From a virus (taxonomy: Duplodnaviria; Heunggongvirae; Uroviricota; Caudoviricetes): 64,000 nt of DNA. The notes below the pieces were generated by a model. That model ran no database searches and had not been told where the DNA came from. It worked only from the letters and a program-made list of their open reading frames with translations. Of the stretch, positions 1,090-13,877 are shown one piece after another. The position numbers and the translations under genes are program-made. Each line of letters starts with the position of its first letter. Within the stretch, counting starts at the first letter, position 1. The stretch is taken from the IMG/VR virus record IMGVR_UViG_2778261505_000002, one strand, 5' to 3'.

Positions 1090-4000
1090 TTGGACATGGA
1101 ACAGTTCAAGAAGAAAAAATTACCGCTTCTTATTGCCGGTGCTGGTGGCAAGAAAAGTAAAAGCTCCAGCCGTACCCCGGTTGAAGCTGATGATACTGTC
1201 AATTCTCGTGCTATGGCAGCCATCCTCGACCTTCTTGGCGAGGGGGTTATCGGTGGCCTGGTAAATGGCGCAAAGTCGATCTTCATCGACGATTTACCGA
1301 TCTTGAATGAAGATGGCTCTTCCAACTTCAGCGGTATTACATGGGATTTTCGTGACGGCTCACAAGACCAGACGCCAATGGCTGGTTTTGATTTTGTTGA
1401 AACGCCTAAGTCCGTAAATATTCAGCTTAAAAAAACACACGACGTTACGGTTTCAATCGATAACGATGAAGCTGATCGCGTTCGTGTCATCATGAAATTC
1501 CCCTCTTTACGTAGCGTTGATAAAAGCTCTGGCGATACAAATGGCACTACGGTGAAGTACAAATTCCAGATCGCCAACGCAGACGCAACATTTTCTGATG
1601 TAGTGGCAGAAGGTGAGAAAAGCGTTGATATCACGCTAACGGCAAAGAAAACCGGCGTGTATTACCGTAGCTATGAGCTGAAACTGCCTAAGCCTGGTCG
1701 TGCATACAAGGTTAGGGTGATTCGTCTTACAGATGATAATAGTAGCCAGTACCTCTACAACGACACATGGGTTGATTCCATCGGTGAGATTGTCGACACG
1801 CCAATGAACTACCCTAACTCTGCTCTTGTTGGCTTGAAGGTCAATTCAGAGCAGTTTGGTAGCACAATGCCTTCCCGTTCGTATTTGGTGCGCGGTATCA
1901 AAATCCGAGTACCGTCAAACTACAACGAATACACCAATACTTATGTCGGCGTATGGGACGGTACTTTTAAGCTGTTGTCTTCTTCAAACCCTGCGTGGAT
2001 TCTCTACGATTTGCTTACCAATACTCGGTATGGTCTTGGGCAATTTGTGTCGGAATCCATGATTGACCTCGGCCAGCTCTACCAGATTGGTCGATATTGT
2101 GACGAAGAGGTCGATGATGGCTTTGGGGGTAAAGAGAAACGCTTTGCAATCAATACGCAGATCACCAGTCGACAAGACGCATACCGATTAATTCAGGATA
2201 TTGCCGGTGCATTCCGCGGCATGGTGTTTTGGGCTGGTGGCATGGTTAACATCATGCAGGATAGCCCATCAGATCCGGTAATGATGTTTACCAACTCCAA
2301 CGTCAAAGATGGACTGTTTACCTATAAAGGTTCTGCGCGTAAAGATCGCCCATCCGTTGCGCTCGTAACCTACAACAACAAGGAGGACGGTTATAAGCAA
2401 AATATCGAGTACGTTGAAGATCAGGACGCAATGCGCCGTTATGGTGAGCGTAAAACAGAAGTCGTAGCATTTGGATGTACAAGCCGAGGCCAGGCTCACC
2501 GAGTTGGTTTGTGGCTGTTGTATACCGCCAGAATGGAGTCGGATGTAATTACATTTACTGCCGGCTTAGACGCCTCATTTCTGATGCCTGGTGAAACCGT
2601 TCTGATTCAGAACAAATATCGTGCAGGTAAACGTAACTCCGGTCGAATTGTGGAGTTTACCAAAAACAGCATCACTCTCGATGCGCCTGTGTCGTTAGCT
2701 AAAAGCGGCAGCTTTATTCGGATATTGAATCAGGAAGGCAAAATCGTTGAACGCGATGTTCTTGAAACTGGCGAAAACATAACAAAGGTTACGTTTTCAA
2801 AAGCCCTGTCGTCAGCGGAAACGCCTGTTTTGAACGGTGTCTGGACAATTACAGAACCAGATCTCGAACCTATGCGCGTTCGCATCGTTAACATCGCACA
2901 GGGGGAAACGTCGGGTAGCTTTGACATCACCGCTGTTGAGAACAATCCGTCTAAATATGAGGCAATCGACAATGGTGCAACGCTGATCCCGCAGAATACG
3001 ACGGTATTGGACCCAACTTACTCCAAGCCATCTAATCTGCAAATCACTGAAGGGACTTATCTCTCAAGCCCGGGCAACCTGTCAGTAAAACTGACTGCAA
3101 CATGGGAAGGGAAATCTCCAGAGTATTGGATCAGTTGGCGACGTTCTGATGAAAACAATGTATCGAACTGGCAATCGGCGCGTGTAACCGAAGAGCAATA
3201 CGAAATCGTTAATGTCGCGGAGAATGGACGCTACGACTTCCAGCTGTATGCGGTTTCATTCAACGGTAAAAAAACAGAGATTATCAGTACCGTTTATCAG
3301 GTGTTGGGCACAATGACACCGCCTGATGCCCCAACGTCATTAACGGCCGTTGGAGACTATCGTAATGTGATACTGAATTGGGTTAATCCAGATTCGGTAG
3401 ACCTTGATCACATTAATGTTTACGCATCCCAGACCAACAATCTGGATACGGCGAAACTGATCGCAGAGTCTGCAAGCACCACCTTTACACATGCTGGTCT
3501 TGGGGATAGCGAAACGTGGTATTACTGGGTTCGAGCATCGAACAAGCGAGGTATGTTAAGTCCTCCGAACTCAAACTTGGGTACAGAGGCGACAACTCGC
3601 GATGTACTGTCGTTCCTGACTGGCAAAATTACATCTTCCGAGCTTGGTCAGGCTCTGCTTGAGGACATCAACAGCAAAGTCTCTCAAGAAGCAGTTGACG
3701 AGTTAAATGAGCATATCAACCAGAGCGTCGAATCTTTAGAGGGGGCGGTAAACGACGTTAAGGAAGATATAGCTGAATTAGATAAGCAGTTCAGCGATAA
3801 CCTCGCGGGTTTTGAAATAAAATTCAACGAGCGTAGCGATGCTTTGGAGAACGCACAAACCGAGCTTAAAGGTGAGGTTTCGGCAACGATTAACAAGGTC
3901 AATGAAGCGTTTGAAAAAATTGATGCTACTGATGCTGCAATTGTTGAAATCGAAAACACCGTATCTGAACACGATAAAGCTCTCGCTAATACAGTCGAGG

Positions 4001-5820
4001 CAATAAAGGCTGCAAGAGATGAAGCGGCGGCTCTTATTGCTAAGGAAAGCGAGGCTCGTGTTGAAGGTGATGCTGCAAACGCTAAACAACTGGAAGTGTT
4101 GCAGTCAACGGTAGAGGAAAGCTCCGCTGCCGTTGAAGAAATGAAAAAGACGGTTGCAGAGGTCGATCGTGCCAGTGCAGAACTGACTACGAACATTGAG
4201 GCTTTGGCCAAAACAAATATTGACCTGGCTCTTCGTCAAGATGAAGACCAGCACAAGCAGATGGTCAATAACGCGAAGATCGCAACAACACAGAAAACCT
4301 TTGCTGATGATATGTCTGCAATGGCCACGAAGGTTGAGGAAATTCGCGTAGAAATTGGCGAAGATATTAAGGCCAGTATTCTGGAAGAGTCCACCGCTCG
4401 TGCCGATGGCGATGAAGCGTTGGCAAAGCGTGTCACTCAGCTGCAATCTAAGTTTGAAGGAGATATCAGCGCGGCGATTAGTACAGAGCAGGAGGCTCGT
4501 ACATCTGCCGATGAAGCTCTGACGACACAAATCACTCAGCTTGAGTCGAAAGTAAGCAACGATATCGTCGCAGCTATTAAGGAAGAGCAAGAAGCCCGAG
4601 CAACGGAAGATTCGGCTCTGGCAAGCCAGATCACCCAACTTCAGGCAAAGGTTGATGATGATATTTCTGCTGCAATACGCAGTGAGCAGGAGGCCCGAGC
4701 AAGCGGGGACTCTGCGTTAGCCAAACAAATAAACCAGCTTCAGTCAAAGGTTGACGGTGATATATCCGCTGCCATCACTCAGGAGCAGGAGGCCAGAGCA
4801 AGTGCTGACCAGGCGCTCTCACGAGAAATTAACAGCCTGCGAGCACAAACCGGAACTGATATTGCCGCAGCGGTTGCTGTAGAGACAAAAGCAAGGACTG
4901 ATGCCGATAGTGCATTGTCTACCCAGATTACGTCTCTTACAGCAAAAGCTAATGATCTCAAGGCGTCTCTTGCCAGAGAAACAACGGCTCGTGCAGATGG
5001 TGATACCGCTTTAACAAAAGAGGTTTCAAGTTTAAAAGCACAGACAGCGAAAGATATTAGTGCGGCCGTTGCAGTTGAAACGCAGGCTCGAACTGATGCT
5101 GACTCGGCGTTGTCGTCTCAGATCACCAAGCTGACCTCTCAATACAAAGAGGATATTAAAGCGGCTGTAGCAACCGAAACGAAAACGCGTACAGAGCAAG
5201 ATGCTGCATTGGCGACTCAAATCACAAACTTAGAGTCTCAAACGGCAGCCAACATTTCCGCGGCGGTCACAACTGAAACGAAAGCGAGAACGCAGGCAGA
5301 TAATGCTCTGAGTGGGCGAATCGATACTCTGAAAGCAGAGGTGAATGGAAATACCGCGACAATTCAACAGCAGGCAACAGCTATTGCTGATACCAACAAA
5401 AAAGTGTCAACCGCGTGGACGTTGAAAATGGAGACTTCAACGAGCGGAGGGCAGAAGTATGTTGCCGGTATTGCGCTTGGTATTGACACCACTGGGCTAT
5501 CTCAGTTTTTGGTTCAGGCGGACAGGTTTGGTTTGGTCAACTCTGTTAACGGGAAGATCACAACGCCATTTGTTATCGAAAACAGTATCGCCTATATGAA
5601 TGGAGCGTATATCAAGGATGGCACAATCACCAATGCAAAAGTAGGCGATCTGCAATCTACCAATTTTGTTAGCGGTAGATCTGGATGGCGGTTCGGCAAA
5701 AATGGAACGCTTGAGATCAACGGTAATAGCGGCGGCAATGGGCGATTGGTTATAAATGGTCAGCGGATTGACGTTTATGACGATAACAACGTCTTACGAG
5801 TAAGAATTGGCCGTCTGTGA
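1090..5820 (+). CDS. Tail tip / host specificity protein, lambda gpJ-like (central tail fibre), with a coiled-coil tandem-repeat domain
   Basis: 1576 aa; N-terminus resembles lambda J; FN3-like middle section; about ten tandem ~33-aa repeats (EQEARxxxDxALxxQIxxLxSKVxxDIxAAI) between ~4380 and 5340. Confidence 0.8.
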   Translation: MDMEQFKKKKLPLLIAGAGGKKSKSSSRTPVEADDTVNSRAMAAILDLLGEGVIGGLVNGAKSIFIDDLPILNEDGSSNFSGITWDFRDGSQDQTPMAGFDFVETPKSVNIQLKKTHDVTVSIDNDEADRVRVIMKFPSLRSVDKSSGDTNGTTVKYKFQIANADATFSDVVAEGEKSVDITLTAKKTGVYYRSYELKLPKPGRAYKVRVIRLTDDNSSQYLYNDTWVDSIGEIVDTPMNYPNSALVGLKVNSEQFGSTMPSRSYLVRGIKIRVPSNYNEYTNTYVGVWDGTFKLLSSSNPAWILYDLLTNTRYGLGQFVSESMIDLGQLYQIGRYCDEEVDDGFGGKEKRFAINTQITSRQDAYRLIQDIAGAFRGMVFWAGGMVNIMQDSPSDPVMMFTNSNVKDGLFTYKGSARKDRPSVALVTYNNKEDGYKQNIEYVEDQDAMRRYGERKTEVVAFGCTSRGQAHRVGLWLLYTARMESDVITFTAGLDASFLMPGETVLIQNKYRAGKRNSGRIVEFTKNSITLDAPVSLAKSGSFIRILNQEGKIVERDVLETGENITKVTFSKALSSAETPVLNGVWTITEPDLEPMRVRIVNIAQGETSGSFDITAVENNPSKYEAIDNGATLIPQNTTVLDPTYSKPSNLQITEGTYLSSPGNLSVKLTATWEGKSPEYWISWRRSDENNVSNWQSARVTEEQYEIVNVAENGRYDFQLYAVSFNGKKTEIISTVYQVLGTMTPPDAPTSLTAVGDYRNVILNWVNPDSVDLDHINVYASQTNNLDTAKLIAESASTTFTHAGLGDSETWYYWVRASNKRGMLSPPNSNLGTEATTRDVLSFLTGKITSSELGQALLEDINSKVSQEAVDELNEHINQSVESLEGAVNDVKEDIAELDKQFSDNLAGFEIKFNERSDALENAQTELKGEVSATINKVNEAFEKIDATDAAIVEIENTVSEHDKALANTVEAIKAARDEAAALIAKESEARVEGDAANAKQLEVLQSTVEESSAAVEEMKKTVAEVDRASAELTTNIEALAKTNIDLALRQDEDQHKQMVNNAKIATTQKTFADDMSAMATKVEEIRVEIGEDIKASILEESTARADGDEALAKRVTQLQSKFEGDISAAISTEQEARTSADEALTTQITQLESKVSNDIVAAIKEEQEARATEDSALASQITQLQAKVDDDISAAIRSEQEARASGDSALAKQINQLQSKVDGDISAAITQEQEARASADQALSREINSLRAQTGTDIAAAVAVETKARTDADSALSTQITSLTAKANDLKASLARETTARADGDTALTKEVSSLKAQTAKDISAAVAVETQARTDADSALSSQITKLTSQYKEDIKAAVATETKTRTEQDAALATQITNLESQTAANISAAVTTETKARTQADNALSGRIDTLKAEVNGNTATIQQQATAIADTNKKVSTAWTLKMETSTSGGQKYVAGIALGIDTTGLSQFLVQADRFGLVNSVNGKITTPFVIENSIAYMNGAYIKDGTITNAKVGDLQSTNFVSGRSGWRFGKNGTLEINGNSGGNGRLVINGQRIDVYDDNNVLRVRIGRL

Positions 5821-5913
5821 TGGTGGAAAAAAAATTTTATATCGGTAAAAATAGGTAAGTATCTACTTAATGGCGGGCAAGGATAGCCCGCCAAATCAAG
5901 GAGCATATTCAAC

Positions 5914-8900
5914 ATGTGGTACAGGGAAGGTACTATCACATTTACACAGGGCAGCAATACTCTGGTTGGGGCAGGGACAGCCTGGAACGTAACAGCTAAT
6001 GGTGTGTTGCCGGGGATGATCGTCATTGGCCCCGACAATAAGCTGTATGAGATCAAGCGCGTAACCAGTGATACGAACATTGTTCTCTCAGAACCTTATA
6101 CCGGCGAAACTCAGTCTGAAGTTCCGTGCCGAATCATTACGACCTATGAAGGCGACTTAACACAGTTTAGCGCGCGCTTTACTGCGCTAATGTCGCGTAT
6201 ATCGGCTGATTCCAAGTCCATACGCAGTTGGTTGACTGCGCTGGATGAGGTGACAATCGAGCGTGAAGACGGTACAGAAGTGACCGTTAAGCCGCTAATG
6301 CAGATCGTCAACGAGCACAACGAAAACGTTGAGTGGTATAAAAATAACACTGACGCGATTGATGCTGCTGGCGACAAAGCTCGTGAGGCGGCGGCCAGTG
6401 CTGCCGCAGCAGCAAAAAGCGCCAATGCCGCTGGAGAAAAAGCCTCTCAAGCGTCTCAAAGTGCATCCGCTGCGGCATCCTCACAAAGTGCCGCAAGTGC
6501 GAGTGCAACTGCTGCGAAAAAATCTGAAACGAATGCTGCAGCGTCACAAAAATCTGCAGCCACTTCTGCATCCACCGCGACCACGAAGGCGTCAGAAGCT
6601 GCCACCTCAGCCCGGGATGCGGCGGCCTCAAAAGAGGCAGCGAAATCATCAGAAACGAGCGCAGCCTCGAGCGCCAGTAATGCCGCTTCCTCGGCAACGG
6701 CGGCAGGAAATTCCGCGAAGGCGGCAAAAACGTCCGAGACGAACGCCAGGTCTTCTGAAACGGCAGCGGGACAGAGCGCCTCGGCTGCGGCAGGCTCAAA
6801 AACAGCGGCTGCGTCGTCTGCCAGTGCCGCGTCAACAAGTGCCGGGCAGGCCTCAGCCAGTGCCACCGCCGCCGGAAAATCGGCAGAAAGTGCCGCATCG
6901 TCTGCTTCAACTGCCACAACGAAGGCTGGCCAAGCCACTGAACAGGCCAGCGCAGCAGCGAGGTCTGCTTCCGCAGCGAAGACATCCGAAACGAACGCGA
7001 AAGCGTCGGAAACCCGTGCAGAATCCTCAAAAACGGCAGCCGCATCGTCCGCCAGTTCGGCGGCGTCATCGGCATCATCGGCGTCTGCTTCAAAAGATGA
7101 GGCGACCAGACAGGCGTCAGCAGCGAAGGGCAGCGCCACGACGGCATCCACGAAAGCAACAGAGGCGGCAGGCAGTGCGACGGCAGCATCTCAGAGCAAA
7201 ACTGCTGCTGAATCCGCTGCGACCCGTGCGGAAGCTGCTGCTGATCGTGCTGAAGAGATTGCCGGTGCAGTTGCGATGGAAGACGCAAGCCTTACAACTA
7301 AAGGTGTTGTGAAACTTAGCAGTGCTGTCGACAGCACCAGTGAATCGCTGGCCGCAACGCCAAAAGCAGTTAAAGCAGCCAATGACAATGCGAATAGCAG
7401 GGTGCCATCTAACCGAAAAGTTAACGGTAAAGCACTGACTGCGGATATCAAATTAACGCCGAAAGATATTGGTACTTTAAATTCAGTAACGATGTCTTTC
7501 TCTGGCGGGGCAGGGTGGTTCAAACTGGCTACGGTTACCATGCCACAAGCGAGTTCCATCGTTTACATCGCATTGATTGGTGGCGCTGGTTACAACGTCG
7601 GCTCCCCACATCAGGCAGGCATTTCAGAACTGGTTCTACGAGCAGGCAATGGAAACCCCAAAGGGATTACAGGTGCTTTGTGGAAGCGTACAGCTGTCGG
7701 ATTAACGAATTTCGCCTGGATCAACACATCCGGCGATACATATGATATTTACGTTGAGATTGGCAATTATGCGACTCGTGTAAATATCCATTGGGATTGT
7801 ACTGCAAATGCGACAGTTTCTATTTATACCTCGCCAACATATTCAGCGAGTAAGCCTTCCAGCGTTACCGATGGTGTTGTTTATACGATGTATAGCACAC
7901 ATCAGAAACCGACGCCGTTAGATATTGGAGCACTGCCAACAACCGGAGGAACAGTTTCAGGTCCGTTGTCTGTTACAGGTGGATTAACTGGTTCATTGAA
8001 TGGTAATGCAAGTACAGCCACGAAATTGCAGACGGCAAGATCTATCGGTGGAGTTGTTTTCGACGGTTCTGCAAATATTAACCTTCCAGGTGTAAACACT
8101 ACGGGTAATCAGAACACCACTGGTAATGCTGCAACTGCTACAAAACTTCAGACGGCAAGAACTATCGGCGGCGTGAGCTTTGATGGTACTGCGAATATTA
8201 ATTTGCCAGGTGTTAATACGACTGGTAATCAGAACACAACGGGCAACGCGGCTACTGCTACGAAGTTGCAGACTGCGCGTACTATCAATGGGGTGTCGTT
8301 TGACGGCTCGGCAAATATTGCCTTGTCGCCAGCAAATATAGGTTGCCCGGCATCTCCTACTGGTTGGTTAACTACAGGAAGTAATGGAGGAGCAATAACG
8401 ACAGCCCAGTTAGTTACTTTGTTGCAAAATAACGGGGCATTCAGTACGAAAGCATGGATCGCTCGTTGTGCATGGGCGTATGCGAATAGTGCATCCATAC
8501 CAGACAGTGAAACTGGTTGTGGCATTATTCCACTGGCGGGTGCTGTGATAGAAGTATTCAGCAATAATACCAACAATTACACCATTCGAATAACAACGGC
8601 CACTACGACAAATGTCTCTGGTGCACTCACTAATGCGGAGTTTATCTATGTGTCTAATGGCTCAAGTTATTCACCTGGATGGCGCAGAGCGTATAACACT
8701 AGAAACAAACCAACAGCTTCTGATGTAGGAGCATTACCGCTTTCAGGTGGCACATTATCTGGAGGGTTAACGTCTTCTGGTGAGATCGTTTCAAAATATG
8801 CAAATGGTTTCCGCATTGCTTACGGTAACTTTGGGTTCTTTATCCGTAATGATGGGGCGAACACATATTTCCTGCTAACAGCATCAGGAGACACATTAGG

Positions 8901-10065
8901 TTCATGGAACGGTTTGCGACCTATTACAATTAATAATACCAGCGGTGCTGTATCAATTGGTAATGGACTAAATGTGACTGGTGGCGTAAATGGTAGTTTG
9001 AACGGTAATGCTTCAACAGCTACGAAGTTGCAAACAGCGAGAAACATCAATGGTGTTAAGTTTGATGGTTCAGGCGATATCAATATTAATACATTGGTAT
9101 CTCGTGGCCGAGTTACGGCGTTAAGCGGCTCTACTCAAGGCACTGCTGGCATTCAAATGTATGAGGTGTACAACAATAGCTACCCGACCACGTATGGCAA
9201 CGTATTGCACATGAAAGGTGCGAGTGCTGCTGGTGAGGGCGAGTTGCTTATTGGCTGGAGTGGTACGAGCGGTGCACATGCGCCGGTTTTCATTCGCTCC
9301 CGAAGAGATTACACAGGTGCGGCATGGTCAGCGTGGGCGCAGGTATATACATCAAGGGACTCCATTCCTGGTGTGAATGCCACTGGTAATCAGAACACTA
9401 CTGGTAATGCCGCAACCGCCACAAAATTGCAGACAGCAAGGAAAATTGCTGGTGTGGCGTTTGATGGCTCTGCCGATATAACTTTGACTGCGGCTAACCT
9501 TAATGCTTACACGAAAACAGAGGTAGCAAACCTTCTAAGTTCCTATGCAAGCAGATCATCACTGACAGGCTATAGTGGCAACCTGGATATTGTTGCTGAA
9601 ACACTGGTTGTCAAATCAGGCGGTAGTGGAGGGTTTGCTATATGGGATATTGGCACAACTACTAGCGGTGCCAATATGTACATTGATCCAAACCCAGGTA
9701 TCAATACAGTTTGGCGTTCAACGTCTTCAAGGCGCTATAAAAAGGATATTGAAACATTACAAGATCGATATGCTGATGAACTTTTGTCATTAAGACCTGT
9801 TTGGTATCGTTCAATTTGTCGAGGTGACCGAAAGGATTGGGGGTATTACGGCCTTATTGCTGAAGAGGTTGGTGAGATTGCCCCGCAATATGTCCATTGG
9901 CGTGAACCAACAAATAATGATTCTCCAGAAGATATTTCCTCAAATGGTATGGTCGCTGAAGGAGTGATGTATGAGCGTTTGGTTGTACCACTCATTCATC
10001 ATATTCAGCAATTGACCAAAAGGGTTGAGGAGCTTGAAACGAAGTTAAATTCACCTAAAGAATAA
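5914..10065 (+). CDS. Tail fibre protein with C-terminal intramolecular chaperone (peptidase S74-like) domain
   Basis: 1383 aa; Ala/Ser-rich repeats (SETNA...); repeated NTTGNAATATKLQTARxIGGVxFDGxANI modules; C-terminal segment (YKKDIETL...GLIAEEV...ELETKLN) typical of the auto-cleaving chaperone domain of endosialidase/T5 pb1-type fibres. Confidence 0.8.
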   Translation: MWYREGTITFTQGSNTLVGAGTAWNVTANGVLPGMIVIGPDNKLYEIKRVTSDTNIVLSEPYTGETQSEVPCRIITTYEGDLTQFSARFTALMSRISADSKSIRSWLTALDEVTIEREDGTEVTVKPLMQIVNEHNENVEWYKNNTDAIDAAGDKAREAAASAAAAAKSANAAGEKASQASQSASAAASSQSAASASATAAKKSETNAAASQKSAATSASTATTKASEAATSARDAAASKEAAKSSETSAASSASNAASSATAAGNSAKAAKTSETNARSSETAAGQSASAAAGSKTAAASSASAASTSAGQASASATAAGKSAESAASSASTATTKAGQATEQASAAARSASAAKTSETNAKASETRAESSKTAAASSASSAASSASSASASKDEATRQASAAKGSATTASTKATEAAGSATAASQSKTAAESAATRAEAAADRAEEIAGAVAMEDASLTTKGVVKLSSAVDSTSESLAATPKAVKAANDNANSRVPSNRKVNGKALTADIKLTPKDIGTLNSVTMSFSGGAGWFKLATVTMPQASSIVYIALIGGAGYNVGSPHQAGISELVLRAGNGNPKGITGALWKRTAVGLTNFAWINTSGDTYDIYVEIGNYATRVNIHWDCTANATVSIYTSPTYSASKPSSVTDGVVYTMYSTHQKPTPLDIGALPTTGGTVSGPLSVTGGLTGSLNGNASTATKLQTARSIGGVVFDGSANINLPGVNTTGNQNTTGNAATATKLQTARTIGGVSFDGTANINLPGVNTTGNQNTTGNAATATKLQTARTINGVSFDGSANIALSPANIGCPASPTGWLTTGSNGGAITTAQLVTLLQNNGAFSTKAWIARCAWAYANSASIPDSETGCGIIPLAGAVIEVFSNNTNNYTIRITTATTTNVSGALTNAEFIYVSNGSSYSPGWRRAYNTRNKPTASDVGALPLSGGTLSGGLTSSGEIVSKYANGFRIAYGNFGFFIRNDGANTYFLLTASGDTLGSWNGLRPITINNTSGAVSIGNGLNVTGGVNGSLNGNASTATKLQTARNINGVKFDGSGDININTLVSRGRVTALSGSTQGTAGIQMYEVYNNSYPTTYGNVLHMKGASAAGEGELLIGWSGTSGAHAPVFIRSRRDYTGAAWSAWAQVYTSRDSIPGVNATGNQNTTGNAATATKLQTARKIAGVAFDGSADITLTAANLNAYTKTEVANLLSSYASRSSLTGYSGNLDIVAETLVVKSGGSGGFAIWDIGTTTSGANMYIDPNPGINTVWRSTSSRRYKKDIETLQDRYADELLSLRPVWYRSICRGDRKDWGYYGLIAEEVGEIAPQYVHWREPTNNDSPEDISSNGMVAEGVMYERLVVPLIHHIQQLTKRVEELETKLNSPKE

Positions 10066-10077
10066 ACAACTTCAATC

Positions 10078-10105
10078 GGGGCTGGAGCTAAACCAGCCCC
10101 TGCTT
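10078..10105 (+). terminator. Candidate terminator hairpin after the tail fibre gene
   Basis: GGGGCTGG-(7 nt)-CCAGCCCC stem-loop directly after the stop codon; T-tract is weak. Confidence 0.4.
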
Positions 10106-10125
10106 AAAAGTATAAGGATATATTT

Positions 10126-10380
10126 ATGAGCTATGGTGCACAGGTTTGGTCGCCATCAAGACAGGAGATGGTCAATGCGTTGGCCCCTGTTTATTACCTC
10201 GATTATTTTACTCCCTCTGGTTCAGGAAGTAGAACATATGAGGTTGAGGCGGGATTGGGAATCGACTATTACATAATGGACGTAACCAATGGAAAGTACA
10301 CAAGTCTTACGGTTTCTGGAAATACCATTTCGTGGTCTGGAGCTAGTGGTAATTTAAACATATTGGTTTTTCAAAAATAA
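10126..10380 (+). CDS. Hypothetical protein (tail-fibre-adjacent)
   Basis: ORF with upstream AAGGA RBS; no recognisable motif. Confidence 0.4.
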   Translation: MSYGAQVWSPSRQEMVNALAPVYYLDYFTPSGSGSRTYEVEAGLGIDYYIMDVTNGKYTSLTVSGNTISWSGASGNLNILVFQK

Positions 10381-10988
10381 TGTACGGAAGCAAGATATAT
10401 CGATCTGACGGGAAGGTCTGGATGTCTCCTTCTTTGTCTCCTATCGTTTTTCAGAGAAAGCAGGTTGTTTCTTTGTCCGGCGGAACAGAGTTTAACACCA
10501 AAATATCTCCAGATCGTTCACCGATTATTTTTGTTGCCTATTCGAAAGCTGTTTCATTAATAGCCAACAGAATAGTGCGTAACAACCAGGTGATTTACAG
10601 TTTCGGAGGTCAGGGTAGCGACTCTAGTGCCACGATATACGTATTTTCGAAAGGTATAGCCAAAAAAGAAACTTGGGGCATGAGTTTTTTCAATGCACAA
10701 GGGGAGGAAATCTATAATACGGCAAATATCCCACTTTCATTTACCTTTCTTAATAATACAGAGTGGAACAGCTCTGGAGGGCATGTTTTTGATTACCCTC
10801 CAGCGATAATCCCAACATATGCGAATGTGTTCGCTGTTCCAGTACCGGGCGGAGCCATGACAATGGTTTATGGATATGCGGCATATGGAAATACTGTTAG
10901 CTCGATATTCGTAAACCAACTTAATGGCGGCCATAGTTTTAGCGTAAATGGCAGAGTACCGGTAATAAATAGAAATCTGTATAACTGA
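10380..10988 (+). CDS. Hypothetical protein (tail-fibre-adjacent, possible fibre accessory or assembly protein)
   Basis: 202-aa ORF whose start abuts the upstream stop; Gly/Ser/Asn/Tyr-rich composition. Confidence 0.4.
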   Translation: MYGSKIYRSDGKVWMSPSLSPIVFQRKQVVSLSGGTEFNTKISPDRSPIIFVAYSKAVSLIANRIVRNNQVIYSFGGQGSDSSATIYVFSKGIAKKETWGMSFFNAQGEEIYNTANIPLSFTFLNNTEWNSSGGHVFDYPPAIIPTYANVFAVPVPGGAMTMVYGYAAYGNTVSSIFVNQLNGGHSFSVNGRVPVINRNLYN

Positions 10989-10995
10989 TGAGTAA

Positions 10996-11229
10996 ATGAT
11001 GAAAAGATTATTTCTAACAATAGCTGTTGTTCTCTCTCTTACTGGCTGCCAGAAATTGCCGACACCTATATGTTATGGTGAAGCTATCATTGGTGGACAG
11101 GAGACAGTCATACCCATATATGCTGTTAAAAAAGTGAACGACTATACCTTATACAAAGCGGGTAGCATCTATAACTGGCGATGGGTTGGAGTAGGTGCTT
11201 TCTCATCAATCGGTTGCAATGCTGAATGA
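10996..11229 (+). CDS. Small lipoprotein; candidate Cor/Llp-like superinfection-exclusion protein
   Basis: Signal peptide with lipobox (LSLTG|C); 77 aa; located immediately downstream of the tail fibre genes. Confidence 0.5.
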   Translation: MMKRLFLTIAVVLSLTGCQKLPTPICYGEAIIGGQETVIPIYAVKKVNDYTLYKAGSIYNWRWVGVGAFSSIGCNAE

Positions 11230-11298
11230 TAGGTAAGTACACACCTACAACAAAAGGGTGAAATGTGATATAAATCCGCCATCCCGATTTGACTTTTC

Positions 11299-11634
11299 AT
11301 GGAGGAAAACATGTCGAACGAGATGGCGGGCGTTACAACAGAGCAAGTTGAGCGTATTGCCGCGATCGTTGCTCGGGAGGTTGTTGGCAAATTAGGTAAA
11401 GAGCTACGTGAAGAAATTGGCCAGGAGGTCAATGATCAGCTGAAAACCTACTTTGGTGATATGACCCCGGCGCAACATAGTATTCAACACTCCAATCTGG
11501 ACAAACTCCTTAACCGGTTAGATTCCATCTCAAGTGGGTTCTTTGGCGGCATTGTTTCTAAAATAACGTCGTTCATTATTACCGCACTGCTTTTGGGGTT
11601 AGCCGCGTATGGCGTAAAAAGTGGACTGCAATAA
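11299..11634 (+). CDS. Hypothetical membrane protein; candidate holin
   Basis: 111 aa, soluble N-terminal part and one C-terminal TM helix; first gene of the putative lysis cassette. Confidence 0.35.
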   Translation: MEENMSNEMAGVTTEQVERIAAIVAREVVGKLGKELREEIGQEVNDQLKTYFGDMTPAQHSIQHSNLDKLLNRLDSISSGFFGGIVSKITSFIITALLLGLAAYGVKSGLQ

Positions 11635-11647
11635 CAGGAGATCAAGG

Positions 11648-12340
11648 ATGAAGACTCCGAGAGGCATTCGTAATAATAACCCCGGTAATCTTGATAAAGG
11701 ATCACCGTGGCAAGGTCTGGTTGCGAATCCAGACGAACCGCGCTTTTGCACGTTTAAAGACCCTGTTTGGGGGATTCGTGCGCTGGCGGTGACTCTAATT
11801 ACCTACCACGACAAACGTCGCGCAAAAGACGGCTCAAGTATCGATACCATTCGTGAAGTTATTGAACGTTGGGCACCGCCGAATGAAAACAATACTGACG
11901 CCTACATTAATGAGGTGTCTAAAGCCGTTGGTGTAACCGCAGACATGATCATCGATCTGCATGATTACGACATCCTTCGACCTTTGGTTGAGGCAATCAT
12001 TCGCCACGAGAATGGCCGAGGCCCGCTAAAAACGCTGAACACCTGGTATGCGGCAGAAGTTATTGAGGAAGGTCTGCGTCGAGCTGGCGTTGTTAAGCCG
12101 GTGAAAACCGTGAAGGCTGTTCCTGTAACTAAAGAAACCGCAGGCGCAACTGTTACAGCAGGTATTGGTCTGGCGCAGCTGGCCGATGTTATGCCGCAGG
12201 TTTCCGCTGCTATGGATAAAGCACAAGGTCATATCTCTAGCGGGGATACAGTACGCATCATCTTCGGTATTGCCACTATTGTTGTGGCAGGATTCATTGC
12301 CTGGTCGCAGGTAAGAAAACACCAGAAAGGGATGGTCTAA
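11648..12340 (+). CDS. Hypothetical protein with C-terminal TM anchor; candidate endolysin by position only
   Basis: Start chosen at the ATG preceded by AGGAG (the track ORF begins 27 nt earlier at 11621); conserved-looking N-terminal RNNNPGN motif; lies between the holin candidate and Rz/Rz1. Confidence 0.4.
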   Translation: MKTPRGIRNNNPGNLDKGSPWQGLVANPDEPRFCTFKDPVWGIRALAVTLITYHDKRRAKDGSSIDTIREVIERWAPPNENNTDAYINEVSKAVGVTADMIIDLHDYDILRPLVEAIIRHENGRGPLKTLNTWYAAEVIEEGLRRAGVVKPVKTVKAVPVTKETAGATVTAGIGLAQLADVMPQVSAAMDKAQGHISSGDTVRIIFGIATIVVAGFIAWSQVRKHQKGMV

Positions 12341-12341
12341 T

Positions 12342-12593
12342 ATGCTAGGCAGCCTGATGACAAAGCTAAAAGTTGCTTTGATTACGCTGGCTGCCGTTCT
12401 TTTCGTTCTTGTCGGCGCTTACACGATGGGCGGGAATGCGGCGCGACGAGCAATGGAAGAGAAGGCAAAACAGGAAGACAGAAAACGACTTCAAAGCACA
12501 GTGGAAGTGGTGAATGAGACGAGCAATAAAATACGTCAGAAAGATGCTTCTGCCGTTCATCGTGAGTTGTATGATAAGTGGGTGCGTCATTAA
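12342..12593 (+). CDS. i-spanin (Rz-like)
   Basis: N-terminal TM helix followed by a charged coiled-coil region; a +1-frame lipoprotein ORF overlaps its 3' end. Confidence 0.7.
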   Translation: MLGSLMTKLKVALITLAAVLFVLVGAYTMGGNAARRAMEEKAKQEDRKRLQSTVEVVNETSNKIRQKDASAVHRELYDKWVRH

Positions 12594-12729
12594 ACCACAA
12601 ACCGCCAGCGTATTGTTCTGCGATGGAGCTGGGCCTATCTATATCAGCAATAATGATGTGATGACCGAAGAAACCGAACGCCAAATCCTTTTTCACAATA
12701 CGATGGGAGAGAGAGTTTGCGGTTGGTGA
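12544..12729 (+). CDS. o-spanin (Rz1-like outer-membrane lipoprotein)
   Basis: Lipobox (MISG|C) in an ORF overlapping the 3' end of the Rz-like gene in another frame; start set at the internal Met before the signal peptide (track ORF begins at 12514). Confidence 0.65.
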   Translation: MLLPFIVSCMISGCVIKPQTASVLFCDGAGPIYISNNDVMTEETERQILFHNTMGERVCGW

Positions 12730-12738
12730 TGCGAAGTT

Positions 12739-12754
12739 CCCCTCACTTGAGGGG
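12739..12754. terminator. Hairpin between convergent genes (candidate bidirectional terminator)
   Basis: CCCCTC-ACTT-GAGGGG stem-loop between the Rz1 stop and the stop of the minus-strand GNAT gene. Confidence 0.4.
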
Positions 12755-12760
12755 AGTACA

Positions 12761-13282
12761 TTATTCTTCGAACAATTTTTCGATAGATTTTGTAGGATAG
12801 AACAAAGAACGCTCGTTGTTACCAACCAGCTGGATAAAGTCTAAACTTTTATAAAACGCCTTGGCTTTGTCATTTAACGCCTCAACGAAAAGTCCATGAA
12901 TGCCTACAGCAAGAGATGCATTGTACACAACGCGCATTGCATGTGTTACAAGCATTGAGCCAAATCCTTGACCTTGAAGGGACTTGTCCAAAGCCAGCCT
13001 ACCCAAAGTAACACTTGGAACATTCCGATAAGGTACCTTCTTTTGCTGGCTTCTTGAAGGTAAGGACTCCTTTTCAAAGCAGCTACCTGACAAAGTGTAA
13101 TACCCTAACACTTTTGGTCTGCCTTCTTTCGTGCAAAGCACATAAGCGCGAAGAATTTTTCCCTCATGCTGCCTTTTTAAGTGGTTGGTTAAAAAGGCAT
13201 TTAGTGATTCTTCACCGCAATCAAAACCATTCAAATCATAATCTTTCTCTCCAGAGAAAATTTCTATCTTTATATTATCCAC
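12761..13282 (-). CDS. GNAT-family acetyltransferase toxin (TacT/AtaT/KacT-like)
   Basis: GNAT fold motifs (QGQGFGSML, acetyl-CoA binding region); 173 aa; immediately downstream of a DUF1778-type RHH antitoxin gene. Confidence 0.8.
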   Translation of the reverse strand: MDNIKIEIFSGEKDYDLNGFDCGEESLNAFLTNHLKRQHEGKILRAYVLCTKEGRPKVLGYYTLSGSCFEKESLPSRSQQKKVPYRNVPSVTLGRLALDKSLQGQGFGSMLVTHAMRVVYNASLAVGIHGLFVEALNDKAKAFYKSLDFIQLVGNNERSLFYPTKSIEKLFEE

Positions 13283-13289
13283 GAGTAAA

Positions 13290-13559
13290 CTACTCCATGC
13301 TTTTCAGACGATCAGCAGCTCGTTTCAGCTTGTCGTTCGGTGCCGGAGGATTGCTTATAGCGTCCATAACCAGATTCCAGGATTCTTCATTCAGAACTAG
13401 TCTACGGTGTTGCTCTATAACTTTCACGGCACGTTCAGATGCACTGCTAACCATAAACTGAGTAATGCTCTGGTTAGACATTGCGGCAGCTTCCTCGATG
13501 ATGCTTTTATCGTCATCGGTTAATCTCAAATCGATGCGCTGCTTTTTTAGTGCTGACAT
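13290..13559 (-). CDS. RHH antitoxin (TacA/DUF1778-like) of the GNAT toxin
   Basis: About 90 aa; start set at the ATG preceded by AGGAGG (track ORF extends to 13598); operonic with and upstream of the GNAT gene. Confidence 0.75.
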   Translation of the reverse strand: MSALKKQRIDLRLTDDDKSIIEEAAAMSNQSITQFMVSSASERAVKVIEQHRRLVLNEESWNLVMDAISNPPAPNDKLKRAADRLKSME

Positions 13560-13877
13560 GTATTCCTCCTGATGGCCGTGATGTAGGAAGGCCATCAATC
13601 TCCTCTGTTCAAACTGAGTTTTCGACTCAAAAATTACTTTAAAAGGCTATAGCCCATTACGTGTGCATTATCAAATTGTGTACGGCATATCACCGTACTT
13701 GTAATATAGAGGTCATTGTTACTTTTTTCAACAGACAAATACAAGCTATGTTTGCCAATTGTTAATCACAACCTACCATTTAACCTTTACACCGCAGCCG
13801 TAGGCATTTAGGCTATATCACATATAAGAAAACAAGTTGTTTCAGACGATAATTATATACGCAAAGGGAACTCTCCA

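Follow-up and report, generated by a model that had tools for sequence, protein, structure and literature searches.

A Cor-family lipoprotein gene, probably encoding a receptor-blocking exclusion factor, between the tail fibre and lysis genes of an SSU5-like Escherichia coli phage-plasmid

The window (the whole stretch of DNA analysed, 64,000 nucleotides in length) is an SSU5-like phage-plasmid of Escherichia coli. Many non-mobilizable E. coli plasmids of ~110 kb match positions 9800-11300 at 99-100% identity, and positions 11228-12800 are 98.5% identical to the phage-plasmid Cyrano (pLF82) and 82% identical to Salmonella phage SSU5. The genes follow the order J-like tail tip protein, side tail fibre, an 84-aa protein, a 202-aa protein, cor, holin-like protein, endolysin, Rz/Rz1, a GNAT toxin-antitoxin pair and parA (Table 1). 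The sequence-only reading had placed a small lipoprotein gene between the fibre module and the lysis genes, and this placement is confirmed, with two small genes intervening between the fibre gene and cor.

Table 1. Features of the cor locus and its surroundings, in window coordinates.
Feature	Coordinates	Strand	Basis
J-like central tail tip protein	1090..5820	+	Pfam FNIII-A_GpJ, Phage-tail_3, Phage_Tail_Tip
Side tail fibre, 1383 aa, C-terminal intramolecular chaperone	5914..10065	+	Pfam Gp34_trimer, Peptidase_S74
Partner gene 1, 84 aa, phi80 gp22 / N15 gp22 homologue	10126..10380	+	PHROG 557, E 2.4e-24
Partner gene 2, 202 aa, phi80 gp23 / N15 gp23 homologue	10380..10988	+	PHROG 425, E 5.8e-49
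cor, 77-aa Cor-family phage exclusion lipoprotein precursor	10996..11229	+	ORF, PHROG 1119, NF047972, RefSeq
cor signal peptide, residues 1-17, ends L-T-G	10996..11046	+	lipobox pattern TIAVVLSLTGC
Cys18 codon, lipid-attachment cysteine	11047..11049	+	invariant, alignments A1 and A2
Cys26 codon, presumed disulphide partner of Cys74	11071..11073	+	invariant in 113 sequences
Cys74 codon, presumed disulphide partner of Cys26	11215..11217	+	invariant in 113 sequences
Lysis cassette (holin-like, endolysin, Rz-like, Rz1-like)	11299..12729	+	PHROGs 5093, 873, 1026, 1275; Cyrano and SSU5 annotation
Holin-like gene	11299..11634	+	PHROG 5093
Endolysin	11621..12340	+	PHROG 873, E 6e-89
Rz-like gene	12342..12593	+	PHROG 1026
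Rz1-like lipoprotein gene	12514..12729	+	PHROG 1275
GNAT acetyltransferase toxin (173 aa) and DUF1778-type antitoxin (102 aa)	12761..13598	-	between lysis genes and parA

We made several observations on the neighbouring genes. The side fibre contains an Ala/Ser-rich low-complexity stretch at about residues 150-450 and at least 5 copies of the motif 'GN(A/Q)..TATKLQTAR..G..FDGS..I', in addition to the Gp34 trimerisation domain and the terminal S74 chaperone. In a relative that lacks the 84-aa gene, the 202-aa gene and cor (RefSeq NZ_CP058309.1), the side tail fibre gene (1784..5881) is labelled 'short-chain fatty acid transporter', an evident annotation error. The endolysin, which yielded no Pfam or NCBIfam domain above threshold, starts at a GTG inside the holin-like ORF, with which it shares 14 nt, and its C-terminus is a hydrophobic segment, IIFGIATIVVAGFIAW; it carries the RefSeq label 'membrane protein'. 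The GNAT/DUF1778-type pair, KacT-like in the Cyrano annotation, is likely to be a plasmid addiction module.

The cor ORF opens with an ATG at 10996 and closes with a TGA stop at 11227-11229, encoding a 77-residue product that begins MMKRLFLTIAVVLSLTGCQKLP. Two ATGs stand in tandem at its start (10996, 10999), and the 'MK[KR]' beginning of most homologues corresponds to the second. The N-terminus reads MMKRLFLTIAVVLSLTG-C18-QKL: K3 and R4 lie in the n-region, a hydrophobic core follows, and L15-T16-G17-C18 form the lipobox. Signal peptidase II is predicted to cut the precursor just ahead of Cys18. The PROSITE-type lipobox pattern was matched by this protein and by all 8 homologues checked, whereas the match to Pfam LPAM_1 was marginal (16.6 bits; cut-off 20). 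In Lol sorting, Asp at position +2 acts as an inner-membrane retention signal; because the +2 residue here is Gln and not Asp, the mature protein is predicted to reach the outer membrane. That a 77-aa lipoprotein is encoded here, as had been proposed from the letters alone, is agreed upon by the ORF, the lipobox and homology.

Some variation was noted within the gene. In plasmid p4_0.2 the stop codon TGA is changed to TGG, and the adjacent TAG ends the protein one residue later (78 aa). A run of six adenines (A6) lies at 11128..11133, and two database variants from read-archive assemblies (P0003, P0004) shift frame exactly at this run, with a third (P0001) shifting further downstream. These frame changes are probably assembly errors, but slippage is conceivable.

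Small open frames are frequent by chance, with 72 ORFs of at least 30 aa within 6.5 kb around cor, and it is the family matches (E 8e-30 and 9e-23) and 353 homologues, and not the open frame alone, that identify cor as a real gene. Against the NCBIfam equivalog NF047972 "phage exclusion lipoprotein Cor", whose curated cut-off is 31 bits, the protein scored 80.1 bits, with residues 2-75 aligned to profile positions 1-77 of 78; it also matched PHROG 1119 "Cor superinfection exclusion protein" (E 7.8e-30) over residues 2-76. A Pfam search assigned it no family besides the marginal lipoprotein-signal match, because Cor is absent from Pfam-A. The window ORF is thus, as judged from its sequence, a homologue of cor and more than a gene of similar placement. 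The earlier proposal of a candidate Cor-like exclusion lipoprotein, which had been drawn from gene position, is therefore supported by homology to both profiles and stands on firmer ground than before, since the gene is a sequence homologue of cor and not a mere analogue.

We identified homologues of Cor in a broad range of phages. Tblastn against 50,697 phage records matched 193, all at less than 60% identity, and most of the phage records among the matches listed are annotated as Cor or superinfection exclusion protein. The closest phage homologue among those matches is SSU5_025 (59% identity), followed by Stx phages (58%), HK75 and mEp phages (47%), ES18 (42%), phi80 (41.6%), and T1-like Drexlerviridae and Dhillonvirus (30-34%). 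A single-sequence search of a 5.8-billion-protein set returned only 4 matches, three of them frameshifted fragments, and a profile search of a large protein collection was needed to recover the 353 homologues, of which the named ones are called cor protein or phage exclusion lipoprotein Cor. Across 113 aligned sequences C18, C26, G56 and C74 are invariant, G17, G34, Y42, A55, P58, F59, W61, W63, V64 and F69 are conserved in at least 90%, and an NWxWV-type aromatic motif is near-invariant. The gene is already known: the original SSU5 record calls its ortholog Cor-like, and on ~110 kb E. coli plasmids the identical ORF already carries the name cor in RefSeq. The same ORF is unannotated in older PLSDB gene tables.

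Cor closes a three-gene "extended cor cassette", consisting of the 84-aa gene, the 202-aa gene and cor, that we also found in phi80, HK75, ES18, T1-like grams, Dhillonvirus jat and SSU5, with the same triplet order in phi80 (gp22-gp23-cor), HK75 and SSU5 (SSU5_023-025). The position of the gene had been likened to that of cor in T1/phi80/N15-like phages, and this likeness is borne out by the homologues of phi80 gp22 and gp23 directly upstream (PHROGs 557 and 425). The 84-aa product is 68% identical to SSU5_023, and the 202-aa product, when extended upstream, is 76% identical to SSU5_024. The start of the 202-aa gene overlaps the stop of the 84-aa gene by 1 nt, as it does in phi80 and HK75. We found no signal peptide, lipobox or membrane segment in either product (max KD19 below 1.5), and in sequence the two look like soluble beta-rich virion proteins, a candidate receptor-binding protein and an adaptor, and not like membrane proteins; the 202-aa protein is the candidate receptor-binding protein. 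The two proteins additionally share a similar N-terminal motif, M-x-YG-x7-G-x7-P, which was also seen in phi80, HK75, ES18, T1-like phages and Dhillonvirus.

The gap between the 202-aa gene and cor is 7 nt, and cor is read in the same direction as the tail and lysis genes. A scan of 9900..11700 detected no promoter or terminator belonging to cor: promoter-like sites were fewer than in shuffled sequence, and no terminator follows the gene. The orientation of cor is not constant among phages, being opposite to J and the two partner genes in grams, jat and ES18, and the same in phi80, HK75, SSU5 and the window; thus, the transcriptional wiring of cor differs between lineages. A further arrangement was observed in the Stx podophage vB_EcoP_phi367, whose Cor is the closest outside the SSU5 group (58%): cor (locus 4986..5213) follows a tail fibre adhesin gene, and the homologues of the partner genes lie ~3 kb downstream of it, beside lom (8454..9355), so that the cassette is split, and in a podovirus.

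We modelled Cor with AlphaFold2 on the 113-sequence alignment. The model has a mean pLDDT of 85, with block values of 92-94 for residues 21-70 and lower values in the signal helix, and predicts a signal helix at the N-terminus and, after it, four beta strands, that is, an Llp-like small beta fold. Foldseek against the PDB recovered only weak, generic Tudor/chromo/SH3-like barrels (E > 0.3). Among predicted viral structures the best match was the Dhillonvirus Cor (E 2e-4), and the next were small proteins of T5-like phages, mostly named lipoprotein, with non-significant E values of 0.05-0.3. T5 Llp itself (PDB 8A60 with FhuA, 7QJF) is 11% identical to Cor in structural alignment. It was the top PDB match of a 9-sequence Cor profile (8a60_B), at a non-significant E of 0.011 that arises mostly over the signal peptide, and it matched the 113-sequence profile at E 0.39. 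The authors of the Llp study reported ~20% identity to Cor "including the intramolecular disulphide bond", which in Llp joins Cys11 to Cys58 and ties the termini (PMC9586334), and it has been concluded that Llp and Cor share a fold, with the mechanism of Cor not yet elucidated (bioRxiv 10.64898/2026.03.26.714494). Cys26 and Cys74 of the window protein fall at mature positions 9 and 57 of 60, to be compared with 11 and 58 of 61 in Llp, and by this comparison they are likely to form the corresponding bond.

We consider it probable (at roughly 70%) that cor of this SSU5-like E. coli phage-plasmid encodes an outer-membrane lipoprotein that blocks the terminal phage receptor from the periplasm and so brings about superinfection exclusion, with FhuA as the most probable target. 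The precursor would be exported, lipidated at Cys18 and cleaved by signal peptidase II, leaving a mature domain of about 60 residues that would form a small all-beta barrel with its ends joined by the Cys26-Cys74 disulphide. [quoted passage not shown] The expected outcome is exclusion of the same phage and of other users of the same receptor, and Cor may also save progeny from wasteful adsorption to lysing cells and debris. For the window gene, late expression that shields progeny in this way appears to be the safest reading, because cor shares the strand of the tail and lysis genes, follows the 202-aa gene after a 7-nt gap, and has no promoter or terminator of its own that the scan detected. 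Expression from the plasmid-prophage, that is, lysogenic conversion by analogy with phi80 and N15, is possible.

FhuA is our best guess at the target because cor ends a three-gene cassette that the literature ties to FhuA-using phages. Exclusion of FhuA-dependent phages and functional inactivation of FhuA have been reported for the Cor proteins of mEp167, phi80, N15 and T1 (PMC13164509; bioRxiv 10.64898/2026.03.26.714494), and the extended cassette has been described in T1, HK022, N15, ES18, phi80, and BASEL Drexlerviridae and Dhillonvirus phages, every one a FhuA user (PMC13164509). However, all three proteins of the window cassette are closest to those of SSU5 (with 59% identity for Cor, and the values given above for its partners) and next to those of an Stx podophage within the Sepvirinae; both partner proteins are remote from their counterparts in the FhuA-validated cassettes (phmmer E 1e-5 to 1e-8), and Cor is 31-49% identical to the characterised or FhuA-linked members (alignment A1). 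The receptor reported for SSU5 is the LPS core (PMC4138488). Because of these points, we infer FhuA as the target and do not take it as given. A literature search on the receptor of the SSU5-like E. coli phage-plasmids Cyrano and PhiR41_1 found none, and no protein receptor for the group. The C-terminus of J is not diagnostic of the receptor, because it matches 1,821 phage records from many hosts and with many receptors.

The same divergence leaves some room for a Cor-family exclusion lipoprotein aimed at an outer-membrane protein other than FhuA, such as another TonB-dependent transporter (for instance BtuB), LptD, BamA or OmpC, that the divergent partner proteins would recognise. The window Cor and its 84-aa and 202-aa partners group with those of SSU5 and of phi367, the Stx podophage, in a subclade distant from the FhuA-validated cassettes, and the literature search on SSU5-like phages found no protein receptor. 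Cor-like lipoproteins accompany BtuB-using phages, there outside the full cassette (PMC13164509), and the locus downstream of gpJ, which has been read as encoding a receptor-binding protein, accessory proteins and a cognate exclusion lipoprotein, occurs in alleles that track FhuA, BtuB, LptD and YncD (PMC8594841; bioRxiv 10.64898/2026.04.02.716166). We nonetheless regard a non-FhuA target as unlikely. Every phage of known receptor that carries the complete cassette of PHROG 557, PHROG 425 and Cor uses FhuA (survey in PMC13164509), and it is exactly these three families that the window proteins match; the best structural match of Cor is the FhuA-binding Llp, and the structure of the LptD-blocking lipoprotein Rtp45 (PDB 9RPS) was unmatched by Cor in either sequence profile or fold search. 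A broader and similarly unlikely proposal would see the SSU5-like and Stx-phage Cor subclade, with its divergent partners, as a portable 'receptor-binding plus self-exclusion' module directed against a protein other than FhuA, whose presence or absence would switch these plasmid-prophages between two adsorption modes.

It is also conceivable that Cor is an accessory of the adsorption apparatus, needed by the receptor-binding proteins of the tail tip, encoded just upstream, in order to assemble or work, and not an exclusion factor. The close packing of cor against the two upstream genes, with a 7-nt gap to the nearer one and no separate promoter found, would suit such a role, and joint action of the three proteins has been speculated upon (PMC13164509). 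We consider this very improbable: a lipoprotein signal peptide would route Cor to the host envelope and not to virions assembling in the cytoplasm, the inverted orientation of cor in T1-like phages, Dhillonvirus and ES18 makes it an independent unit there, and Cor alone has been linked to exclusion and FhuA inactivation (bioRxiv 10.64898/2026.03.26.714494). Finally, a small lipoprotein encoded 70 nt upstream of a holin-like gene could in principle be a lysis protein, the outer-membrane (Rz1-like) spanin of the adjacent cassette, but this we find barely credible and reject, as the lysis genes end in a complete pair of their own, Rz-like and overlapping Rz1-like, Cyrano has the same lysis cassette without cor, and the cor ORF matched no spanin family, is not nested in an i-spanin gene or paired with one, and lies ahead of the holin gene.

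We investigated the distribution of the Cor cassette among E. coli plasmids. Of 5,426 complete E. coli genomes, 66 contain the complete cassette (query 10100-11300), in each case on a plasmid. In another ~104 SSU5-like plasmids the match is confined to the ~70 bp that immediately precede the holin gene. The cassette is present in about 40% and absent from about 60% of the E. coli SSU5-like phage-plasmids. Cyrano, whose J is 98.9% identical to that of the window over the portion compared (window J residues 324-1576), is without the cassette: its homology to the window ends in the fibre gene at about residue 1217, and resumes at 11228, exactly in the cor stop codon. As Cyrano-type relatives lack the whole cassette, it is dispensable for maintenance and for virion production. 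The fibre tip and the cor cassette are a natural presence/absence polymorphism of a receptor and exclusion module. The fibre tip of the window (9566-10065) occurs in 48 genomes, and is therefore not strictly linked to the cassette. Among PLSDB plasmids, Cor homologues of the window type were found in Escherichia (73) and Enterobacter (45), and also in Klebsiella, Salmonella, Citrobacter and others.

The extent of the missing segment was noted in several records. The fibre tip together with the whole cassette (~9565..11228) is missing or replaced in Cyrano (locus 7509..8060), in PhiR41_1, in two CMS-2020a records and in about 100 E. coli SSU5-like plasmids.

As an identification this adds little that is new, confirming that SSU5-like E. 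coli phage-plasmids carry a classical Cor exclusion module, which RefSeq already says. Strains with such plasmids may resist FhuA-dependent phages (T1, phi80, T5) and FhuA-dependent antimicrobials, which would matter for phage therapy and typing. For a phage group with the LPS core as its sole reported receptor, the cassette additionally suggests a protein receptor that could be tested, and the presence or absence of the cassette among otherwise near-identical plasmids provides natural isogenic pairs for a test of that receptor.

Comparison with known systems places the window gene within the Cor family proper. The Cor proteins of phi80, N15, HK022, mEp167 and T1 belong to the same HMM family, are of the same length (72-80 aa), and share the lipobox, the three invariant cysteines and the NWxWV-type motif; their genes likewise follow the tail-tip genes, behind homologues of gp22 and gp23. 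In contrast to these classical phages, the window cassette is separated from J by the 1383-aa side fibre gene and has very divergent partner genes, and its cor is located on a plasmid-prophage with the lysis genes immediately downstream, whereas the classical cor belongs to an integrated lambdoid phage and is found close to its att site. The nearest counterpart, SSU5_025 ('putative phage superinfection exclusion protein Cor-like protein'), occupies the same place in a syntenic series of J, fibre, 84 aa, 202 aa, cor, holin, endolysin and Rz/Rz1, but differs from the window Cor at 41% of residues, with DNA too dissimilar for megablast, and SSU5 carries an extra tail fibre adhesin gene (SSU5_022) ahead of the cassette.

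A similar logic without detectable likeness to Cor, by sequence profile or by fold search, is seen in Rtp45 of phage Rtp. This small lipoprotein, whose gene neighbours the receptor-binding locus downstream of gpJ, faces the periplasm and blocks the receptor that its own phage uses (PMC12685063); its action is steric, through displacement of LptD loops, and does not involve allostery in a TonB-dependent transporter. T5 Llp, to which the placement of the gene had also been compared, is an early gene of a virulent phage and lies beside pb5, to which the 84-aa and 202-aa proteins bear no relation. Llp binds the periplasmic face and the plug of FhuA, and refolds its loops EL7 and EL8.
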